Source of the DNA: Candidatus Micrarchaeota archaeon
GTDB taxonomy: Archaea; Micrarchaeota; Micrarchaeia; Anstonellales; Bilamarchaeaceae
Reading direction: 5' to 3'
NCBI GenBank assembly: GCA_043821365.1
Contig: JBDRCX010000006.1
Location: forward strand, 320,001 to 384,000
DNA length: 64,000 nt
A program made the position numbers and the translations under genes. Below the pieces are notes generated by a model. It saw only the letters and a program-made list of their open reading frames with translations, ran no database searches and had not been told where the DNA came from. Shown here piece by piece: positions 32,786-49,255 of the stretch (the stretch's first letter is position 1; every line of letters begins with the position of its first letter).

Positions 32786-32923
32786 GCAGGGATAGCAAAG
32801 CCTGGTCAAATGCGCAGGACTTAAGAAACTTCGCTGATGTTTGGCAGATGTCAAAGTTCCATCAAAGGTCTTGAGTTATCCTGTCGCTTAGTGCGTTCGA
32901 CGGTTCAAATCCGTCTCCCTGCA
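32786..32923 (+). tRNA. tRNA-Leu(TAA) with 52-nt canonical 37/38 intron (32826-32877)
   Basis: GCAGGGA/TCCCTGC acceptor; CAGGA/TCCTG anticodon stem; BHB central helix CUUA/UGAG. Confidence 0.94.
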
Positions 32924-48739: not shown

Positions 48740-48801
48740 GTATTATTCTTTTGGTCTTACTTTTAAAATCTTATGAGGAATAATATGAATTCTAGTTTCT
48801 A

Positions 48802-48881
48802 GTCAAAATCGCTTTGCGATTTTAACAAGTACTTGAAACCGAGTTTCAAGTTTCGCGAAAATTCCACTGAATTTTCACGAT
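48802..48881 (+). ncRNA. Conserved three-hairpin tRNA 5' leader, copy 2
   Basis: Homologous to 7211-7294 with compensated stems. Confidence 0.8.
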
Positions 48882-49094
48882 GCTGGGGTCGCCTAGTCCG
48901 GTAGGGCGGCAGGTTGCTATGCGCTTTTTGGAAAAAGCGCCCAAAAACAGATTGTTGAAACTGCTTCGCAGTTTGGGTGTTATCATACAAGAAGCGTGTC
49001 CAAAAACTTAACGAAAAAGTTTTGATCCAACTTTTTCCAAAAGTTGGAAACCTGTTGCGCATTGCGTTCAGGAGTTCAAATCTCCTCCCCGGCG
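48882..49094 (+). tRNA. tRNA-Ser(GCT) with 130-nt multi-hairpin 37/38 intron (48920-49049)
   Basis: GCTGGGG/CCCCGGC-G acceptor; GCAGG-TTGCTA|A-CCTGT anticodon arm; long variable arm; terminal BHB helix is weak. Confidence 0.88.
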
Positions 49095-49153
49095 AACGAA
49101 GTGAGCTGGGGGGAGTTTTGTTCGGTTCGCCGAACAATCATTCCTCCCCGGCG
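49083..49153 (+). repeat. Duplicated tRNA-Ser 3' end enclosing a two-hairpin insert
   Basis: TCCTCCCCGGCG at 49083-49094 and 49142-49153, followed by a T-run. Confidence 0.85.
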
Positions 49154-49255
49154 TTTTTATTATTTACATTTAGGGTAACAAGTCCAATTCTAATAAATAG
49201 CTCAAAATCTTAATTAGCGTTTATCAATTCCTTTATTATCCTTAGTCTACAACAT

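Follow-up and report, generated by a model that had tools for sequence, protein, structure and literature searches.

The window analysed here is a 64,000-nucleotide (nt) stretch of DNA, positions 320001-384000 of contig C6 in a Candidatus Micrarchaeota genome assembly (G000) of 1.2 Mb that has 36% G+C and is 87% complete. A type II tRNA gene, tRNA-Ser(GCU), can be read directly from the sequence at 48882-49094 on the plus strand. It is interrupted between tRNA positions 37 and 38 by an intron of 130 nt (48920-49049, plus strand), and this intron, together with the leader and trailer of the gene, is the subject of the present study. The 5' exon (48882-48919) holds positions 1-37, with the anticodon GCT at 48916-48918. 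The 3' exon (49050-49094) holds positions 38-73, that is, the 3' strand of the anticodon stem, a long variable arm, the T arm, the 3' strand of the acceptor stem and the discriminator G. The acceptor stem is GCTGGGG/CCCCGGC, the anticodon stem GCAGG/CCTGT and the T arm AGGAG-TTCAAAT-CTCCT; the anticodon loop is TTGCTA, then the intron, then A. The gene for eIF2-gamma adjoins the locus. Its nearest matches are Micrarchaeota metagenome-assembled genomes (84-63% identity), by which the host is assigned to the DPANN archaea as a member of the Micrarchaeota.

When 48920-49049 is deleted in silico, ARAGORN calls the remaining sequence tRNA-Ser(gct). Precise removal of the intron restores a canonical cloverleaf, and the resulting junction is that of the intronless 84-nt orthologues of three congeners, which read exactly GGTTGCTA-ACC at this point. 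The gene in its interrupted form is called poorly. At default settings ARAGORN calls no tRNA gene at all in the window, and with introns allowed it miscalls the Ser locus as Pro(tgg). Rfam at its gathering threshold misses tRNA-Ser(GCU) and has a single match in the window, to tRNA-Leu(UAA) at 32786-32923 (plus strand, 44.8 bits), a gene with an intron of about 52 nt. An open frame of 112 amino acids (aa) runs opposite the tRNA locus on the minus strand (48799-49137); it is almost certainly spurious, a by-product of palindromic sequence.

The intron is bounded by two cap hairpins. The 5' cap hairpin, hp1 (48921-48940), begins 1 nt past the 5' splice site and has the form GCGC-T5-GG-A5-GCGC (GCGCTTTTT/AAAAAGCGC). 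The 3' cap hairpin, hp2 (49027-49047), has the form CCAAC-T5-CC-A4-GTTGG (CCAACTTTT/AAAAGTTGG) and is followed by AA up to 49049; these two nucleotides and A38 make a 3-nt bulge that carries the 3' splice site. Two segments lie between the caps, and CCAAAAAC occurs in each of them. The first (48941-48999) comprises CCAAAAAC at 48941-48948, the junction motif AGATTGTTG, the hairpin hpX (AAACTGC/GCAGTTT, 48958-48974) and a degenerate stretch ending in AAGAAGCGTGT, which resembles a second 3' strand of hp1. The second (49000-49026) comprises the other CCAAAAAC at 49000-49007, a small hairpin AAAACTT/AAGTTTT at 49003-49023, and GAT.

Further hairpins flank the gene on both sides. The leader (48805-48881, plus strand) contains three of them, at 48805-48823, 48831-48851 and 48857-48876, and ends in ACGAT directly before position +1 of the tRNA. 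The trailer (49095-49158, plus strand) consists of the linker AACGAAGTGA (49095-49104), a strand complementary to the 3' end of the tRNA (49105-49115), an inner hairpin (49118-49137), an 11-nt copy of the tRNA 3' end (CCTCCCCGGCG, 49143-49153) and T5 (49154-49158), so arranged that 49105-49153 forms a nested hairpin. When the folding energies were tested against 200 dinucleotide shuffles, every shuffle was beaten, with z values of -6.2 for the leader, -5.07 for the intron, -4.65 for the trailer and -4.9 for the whole pre-tRNA. The original prediction, which was made from the letters of the window, had described about ten hairpins in and around this tRNA gene, and its coordinates, its named hairpins and the doubled CCAAAAAC are all correct. 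Its suggestion that CCAAAAAC could pair with the UUG side of the anticodon finds no support other than a trivial complementarity of 3 nt.

The leader and the trailer both recur elsewhere. Three-hairpin leaders ending in ACGAT before +1, with compensatory changes in their stems, are also found before the tRNA gene at window positions 7295-7430 and before tRNA-Leu(UAG) on contig C3. In the intronless congener G024 the upstream gene is the same and about 55 nt of the leader are missing. The tRNA gene at 7295-7430 (plus strand, leader from about 7211) is itself interrupted, by an intron in the D loop that starts with a hairpin of the hp1 type and CCCAAAAC.

The trailer layout, in each case copying the 3' end of the very tRNA that it follows, occurs after tRNA-Asn in G000, G011 and G049 and after Ser-GCU in G015, G006 and G012. 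The intronless Ser-GCU orthologues and G023 lack it. Similar layouts of direct repeats stand at sites without a recognised tRNA 3' end in G024, G017 and G046. In general terms the AACGAAGTGA element consists of a target X, the linker, a near-complement of X, a hairpin and a copy of X, the direct repeats being 9-16 nt long. Where the near-complement departs from a perfect complement, G-U pairing is mostly kept. Loci of this element are window 49095-49158, G000:C6:684852-684920, and L145, L151, L152, L154 and L158.

The intron belongs to a larger family. In a BLAST search of the locus against 40 relatives, its end hairpins match many unlinked loci of G000 and its congeners at 93-100% identity, hp1 being present elsewhere in near-identical copies; the other families of the order match the tRNA-Ser exons only. 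A palindrome scan gives about 60 hairpins of the form N4-5-C-T4-6-loop-A4-6-G-N4-5, mostly in or beside tRNA genes, and a search for acceptor stems and T arms in G000 gives ten or more tRNA genes with lengths of 190-290 nt. The recurring unit, called R1 here, is an element of about 130 nt with six helices. Its parts follow in the order hp1, CCAAAAAC, TGGYTGTTG, hpX, a mini-hairpin GGTG-AAA-ACC, hpY, TTAGCAAG, GTTTTTGG and hp2. The closing stem is formed by CCAAAAAC pairing with GTTTTTGG around the internal hairpins and conserved single-stranded motifs, and across the family hp1 and hp2 have cores that are reverse complements of each other.

The structure of R1 was assessed with a covariance model built from one copy and its structure, and the other copies were aligned under the guidance of this model. 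It replaced a treatment of eight elements with MAFFT and RNAalifold, which gave two helices only from an alignment that was not structure-aware. The alignment comprises 18 full-length copies, from G000 and 13 congeners (14 genomes), and 96% of its 756 pair cells are canonical. It is fitted to the model and leans towards structure; stems that are perfect yet differ from copy to copy can, however, also be seen in the raw sequences. Positions of the lower stems carry 3-6 pair types in these copies, and the lower stem of hp1 covaries with 4-5 pair types per position.

About 20 loci of G000 match the model, the Ser-GCU intron among them. This intron scores 52.6 bits in the sense direction (E 6e-10 in the window) and 30.9 bits in antisense. 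It has an hp1 and an hp2 with the core C-T4-6...A4-6-G, both abutting processing sites, and a closing stem of CCAAAAAC with GTTTTG (49019-49024). Both hpX and AGATTGTTG are present; 25 unrelated nucleotides replace hpY, and TTAGCAAG is degenerate as TAACGAAAAAG. The copy in the Ser gene is a rearranged member of the family.

R1 matches are found in 26 of the 40 congeners, at 0-38 per genome with both strands counted. A sample of 121 genomes of the order gives matches in 8 of its 12 congeners and two marginal ones among the 108 genomes from other genera. The original prediction would have been contradicted by the same intron structure in distant archaea; outside the genus, these two marginal hits among the 108 genomes of the order are all that was found.

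All 22 copies whose flanks were read stand in the sense orientation, 21 of them in introns (at 37/38, in the D loop or in the T loop) and one in a trailer. Two further R1 matches in G000 directly abut the 5' ends of tRNAs. Copies have been found in genes for Thr, Ile, Pro, Asp, Glu, Ala and Asn tRNAs. What at first seemed to be an antisense copy at tRNA-Thr(UGU) is a sense copy, in which hp1 with its linker is the reverse complement of the linker with hp2. A doubly occupied gene is tRNA-Pro(GGG) (G000:C6:717451-717782, minus strand), which has one full-length R1 in its T loop and a second directly after the discriminator base. Since a full-length copy can start right after a discriminator, R1 is not confined to introns.

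At permissive thresholds, a search of Rfam with the locus and three full-length R1 copies returns chance-level matches only. A match to archaeal signal recognition particle RNA is seen at G000:C6:464965-465223 on the minus strand (L099 666-924), below the Rfam threshold (78.9 against 96.5 bits) and with hairpin modules beside it. The R1 family is not described in the literature searched; interrupted tRNA genes of Micrarchaeota and intron transposition in Thermoproteales are. R1 is an undescribed, genus-specific and apparently mobile family of introns.

Could R1 instead be a functional small RNA? Such an RNA would be hosted in tRNA transcripts, freed by tRNA processing and stabilised by its terminal hairpins, and the Ser-GCU copy would be a degenerate one trapped in its host. 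The strong conservation of the structure speaks for this idea, as do the invariant unpaired motif TGGYTGTTG, the GGTG-AAA-ACC mini-hairpin and TTAGCAAG across 14 genomes. So do the uniform sense orientation, kept in spite of symmetric ends, and the copies in leaders and in one trailer with cap hairpins abutting the processing sites. But 14 of the 40 congeners have no R1 match, several of them being 90-94% complete, the Ser-GCU copy is without hpY and the TTAGCAAG motif, and the family has neither an Rfam match nor a known target. A small-RNA role is therefore regarded as possible and rather unlikely.

A natural comparison is the box C/D small RNA that is encoded in the tRNA-Trp intron of Euryarchaeota, in some archaea. 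There, too, a structured RNA of about 100 nt lies in an intron at the canonical position and is freed by the splicing endonuclease. In contrast to it, R1 lacks C/D boxes, matches nothing in Rfam and is present in multiple copies across many tRNA types.

One conserved unpaired motif of the R1 consensus, TTAGCAA, is the exact complement of the 7-nt anticodon loop of tRNA-Ser(GCU), TTGCTAA. It is degenerate in both copies hosted by Ser-GCU genes, reading TTAACAT in G006 and TAACGAA at the G000 locus. The match may be a coincidence, or it may reflect selection against self-pairing.

Another kind of mobile sequence is found in the neighbourhood. The tRNA gene at window 1370-1590 (minus strand, 221 nt, acceptor GCCACGG/CCGTGGC) has an intron with a module of about 60 nt, module Z, in the T-tract of a cap hairpin. 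Module Z has the form CCCT-ATAAAAACGA...TCGTTTTTAT-GGG followed by a second hairpin and ATG. Further copies stand at C6:642598 and C6:554230 of G000, and hp1 of the Ser-GCU intron of G015 contains one that is turned the other way round. The placement of the module suggests site-specific insertion at the DNA level. A Y1 transposase gene, TnpA, is encoded at G000:C3:96659-97006 (plus strand, 106.6 bits), and the truncated C-terminus of a TnpB at C6:553800-553997 (plus strand) adjoins the tRNA gene with module Z at C6:554230-554337. A connection between TnpA or TnpB and the modules is only a lead.

These observations bear on the view that all the hairpins are palindromic transposable elements acting at the DNA level, namely miniature derivatives of IS200/IS605 moved by a Y1 transposase and without any role as RNA. 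Known palindrome-associated miniature elements of the IS200/IS605 group insert site-specifically, carry their hairpins in subterminal position and lack terminal inverted repeats. The likeness lies in the presence of TnpA and the truncated TnpB, and in the way in which module Z is nested at the same point of the T-tract of its host hairpins, in either orientation and with no visible terminal inverted repeat, in Ser-GCU of G015 and in three tRNA genes of G000. This case concerns module Z, which is absent from the intron studied. R1 differs from such elements in that its ends vary between copies and in that its strand bias is strictly to the tRNA sense strand. The terminal stem nucleotides of R1 vary yet stay paired, unlike ends recognised by a transposase, and its insertion sites share no common target motif. 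For R1, a purely transposon-based explanation is quite unlikely.

The history of the intron can be followed in relatives. Most congeners, and the other families of the order, have no intron at Ser-GCU 37/38. At the same site G012, G023, G018, G020 and G006 have introns of 52-129 nt that are unrelated or partly related. Closer to the intron of G000 is a short form of about 73 nt, which consists of hp1, CCAAAAAC, a small hairpin, GTTTTGAT, hp2 and AA. The DNA sequencing runs that contain the stretch with the locus are groundwater metagenomes. Contigs from two groundwater runs (X9/X10) have 22 nt, hp1 alone, in place of 48921-48999, so that their intron is 57 nt shorter; from 49000 on they differ from G000 by 3-5 substitutions and one 1-nt gap over about 95 nt. 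The Ser-GCU gene of G015 has the short form with an unrelated two-hairpin module of about 60 nt nested inside hp1. In the congener G003 the 37/38 intron of tRNA-Val(GAC) contains the last 62 nt of the short form at 94% identity, and a tRNA-Val(GAC) intron of this type is also present in a contig from the source metagenome. The extra 57-59 nt of G000 begin with the first CCAAAAAC, continue with TGTTG, hpX and a degenerate second 3' strand of hp1, and end where the second CCAAAAAC starts; they look like the 5' half of full-length R1 copies elsewhere.

Because short and nested forms exist in relatives, and because the pieces come from dispersed repeat families, the sequences indicate that the Ser intron is a composite that was built at the DNA level, by insertion or by recombination among family members. 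The original prediction had offered the accumulation of cassettes as one explanation of the hairpins. As a process at the DNA level this agrees with the forms found in relatives and with the dispersed repeats; as a route to inactivation of the gene it does not agree with the intact exons. By parsimony, the long form is most likely the derived one. The Ser intron would descend from the short form of about 73 nt, and the G000 lineage would have gained some 57-59 nt of R1-like sequence in its DNA, bounded by the direct repeat CCAAAAAC.

The tRNA gene that carries the intron appears to be alive. All its stems pair, the exons are compatible with a cloverleaf and agree with the intronless orthologues, and G015 and two metagenome contigs retain versions of the intron in Ser-GCU genes that are cloverleaf-compatible as well. 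A check for another Ser-GCT gene, as the original prediction had proposed, finds none by BLAST in the 87%-complete assembly. The codons which this tRNA reads are in heavy use: AGT and AGC make up 32.6% of serine codons, with 6,714 AGY codons in 771 long open reading frames. On this sequence evidence tRNA-Ser(GCU) is best seen as a live, intact and working gene, and its inactivation is unlikely.

Splicing of archaeal tRNA introns requires an endonuclease, and G000 encodes two candidates. The first is a three-unit enzyme of the epsilon type with 393 aa (G000:C6:408600-409800, minus strand), which matches the epsilon2 endonuclease of ARMAN-2 (PDB 4FZ2) over its full length (E 3.5e-132). The host thus encodes a splicing endonuclease of a type able to act on relaxed motifs. 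The second is an alpha-like paralogue with 163 aa (G000:C6:480404-480892, plus strand; best PDB match 1A79, E 2e-9). This paralogue was considered as a dedicated enzyme for R1 and rejected, as it is present in 39 of 40 congeners regardless of their R1 content, with no correlation.

An example of a host with such an enzyme is Candidatus Micrarchaeum acidiphilum ARMAN-2, for which disrupted tRNA genes and the epsilon2 endonuclease were described by Fujishima et al. in 2011 (PMC3239211). In ARMAN-2, 56% of the tRNA genes are interrupted, and its epsilon2 enzyme cleaves both strict and relaxed motifs in vitro (PMC3239211). Both organisms belong to the same phylum, have a full-length epsilon-type endonuclease and have many tRNAs interrupted at canonical and non-canonical sites, one in G000 being the tRNA-Pro(GGG), whose T loop is interrupted like that of its counterpart in ARMAN-2; a similar tolerance of relaxed splice motifs is expected. 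Unlike the introns assayed in ARMAN-2, which have 13 and 25 nt (PMC3239211), those of G000 reach at least 130 nt, and they form one conserved six-helix family with cap hairpins that also occurs in leaders and trailers.

The fit of the introns to the archaeal splice motif was measured by comparing the minimum free energy (MFE) fold with a fold forced into a bulge-helix-bulge (BHB), for ten introns at the canonical position. The cost of the forced BHB is 0.0 kcal/mol (equal to the MFE) for Asp of G015, 0.5 for Ala of G051, 1.4 for Ser of G006, 3.5 for Ser of G023, 4.4 for Glu of G049, 6.9 for Thr-UGU of G000, 7.2 for Ser of G012, 10.6 for Val of G003, 13.0 for Ser of G015 and 13.8 for the Ser locus of G000 studied here. 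In 8 of the 10 introns, exon positions 32-35 pair at 4 of 4 positions with the third- to sixth-last nucleotides of the intron; these eight come from six tRNA types. The BHB fold is the MFE fold, or lies within 3.5 kcal/mol of it, in four of these eight well-pairing introns. Where the fit is best, the 5' bulge on one side and the 3' strand of the helix on the other exactly enclose the whole element from hp1 to hp2, and hp1 occupies the position of the inner helix. According to these folding models, the R1 family as a whole obeys the splice-motif rule and the Ser locus of G000 is its weakest member. The reason is that UUGG, with which the helix would have to form, is enclosed in hp2 and can make wobbles only.

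Taken together, the locus is read here as a working tRNA-Ser(GCU) gene into whose transcription unit three kinds of short structured repeats have moved; its 130-nt intron is taken to be a rearranged R1 copy, derived from the short form of about 73 nt and removed in one step. This reading is considered probable. RNase P would take off the leader and tRNase Z the trailer, and the whole intron would leave in a single step. Cleavage by the epsilon2-type endonuclease, 3' of A37 and 5' of A38, would free the two exons for joining by an RNA ligase. The 3' cut would fall in the AAA bulge of 3 nt that separates the anticodon stem from hp2, and the 5' cut 1 nt ahead of hp1, with hp1 standing in for the inner helix. 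The tRNA genes may tolerate the elements because all the contexts in which these stand are trimmed off by tRNA-processing enzymes.

Several points weigh against this reading. The central helix, UUGC (48914-48917) with UUGG (49044-49047), consists of three wobbles and one mismatch, and UUGG is the sole partner available to the exon UUGC. This strand is locked in the 10-base-pair hp2, and the canonical conformer lies at +13.8 kcal/mol compared with 0-7 in most of the other introns, so that the terminal BHB helix is as poor as the original prediction had stated. The Ser relative in G015 and the Val relative likewise have a central helix made of wobbles only. The strict motif of two bulges and a 4-base-pair helix is not formed at the Ser locus, which with its outer helix and its 3' AAA bulge has at best a relaxed motif. 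The locus also fails the strict motif scan, and one-step cleavage by a tolerant enzyme is an assumption. The 87% completeness of the assembly leaves room for a second Ser-GCU gene. Two T5 tracts lie inside the intron, one in hp1 and one in hp2, and such tracts can terminate transcription in model archaea. As to the direction of change, a deletion between the 8-nt CCAAAAAC repeats may have yielded the short form from the long one, and parsimony alone decides between the two.

Some of these points could also describe a decaying gene: the intron would have become unspliceable through the accumulation of elements, and the tRNA would come from another source. The splice-motif energy is the worst of the ten family members compared, the T5 tracts stand inside the gene, and the assembly is only 87% complete. 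Against decay stand the intact exons, the BLAST search, which gave no other Ser-GCU gene, and the abundance of AGY codons. The poor helix is moreover kept in the Ser-GCU genes of G015 and of two metagenome lineages, and a similarly weak but all-pairing helix is found in two Val-GAC genes. Decay is disfavoured because retention of a poor helix across lineages is unlike drift in a dead gene, and the inactivation envisaged by the original prediction is accordingly held to be highly improbable. A split gene, with a stop at the intronic T5, an internal promoter and trans-splicing, was also considered and set aside; the halves are contiguous in all relatives.

Stepwise removal of nested or serial introns, which the original prediction had likewise put forward, would treat the hairpin modules as separate splice units, with each excision generating the splice motif that the following one needs. 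The composite make-up of the intron is demonstrable, the module of G015 is nested inside hp1, and with so poor an outermost motif the prior removal of an inner unit could in principle improve it. But 48802-49160 contains 9 strict BHB motifs compared with 10.3 +/- 3.6 in shuffles, and none of the nine lies at module boundaries, excises a module or restores a sensible RNA. Removal of 57-59 nt would give the short form, which is equally poor (+10.6 for Val, +13.0 for G015). Stepwise removal would not repair the motif, because the central helix of the short form is just as poor, and nested introns are thus very unlikely.

Returning to one-step removal, the introns derived from the short form (Ser-GCU of G000, of G015 and of the metagenome relatives, and Val-GAC) might be spliced without a canonical central helix. 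The 3' cut would then be read from the coaxial stack of stem, AAA bulge and hp2, and the 5' cut, which lies at the usual distance of six nucleotides from the stem, from hp1 in the role of an inner helix. Cap hairpins of this kind would act as portable presenters of splice sites and would allow sense-only moves between tRNA genes, possibly via an RNA intermediate, without complementarity to the exons. This extension of the model is tentative, and on balance doubtful.

Moves of introns between tRNA genes are not without precedent. Fujishima et al. reportedly described, in 2010, the transposition of tRNA introns in Thermoproteales. That case serves as a positive control for intron families that span tRNA types (bioRxiv 10.64898/2026.10.13.758758). 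As in Thermoproteales, related introns are found here in different tRNA genes and positions, such as the intron shared by Ser(GCU) and Val(GAC) at about 94% identity. Unlike the introns of Thermoproteales, the elements of G000 belong to another phylum with another type of endonuclease, and they are much longer, structured, rearranged or nested, and also present outside introns.

The locus has consequences for how such genomes are read. Because standard tRNA finders miss tRNA-Ser(GCU), and default ARAGORN all the tRNAs of the window, genomes of this group of Micrarchaeota will look poor in tRNAs. The genus also provides a natural series of substrates, from perfect to very poor splice motifs, in which the needs of the epsilon2 endonuclease can be studied. 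A 2026 preprint on Asgard archaea tested several routes by which tRNA introns could arrive and found no general one. The origin and movement of archaeal tRNA introns is a long-standing question that this genus can address, since comparable recent states of one site make the gain, growth and transfer of introns directly traceable.

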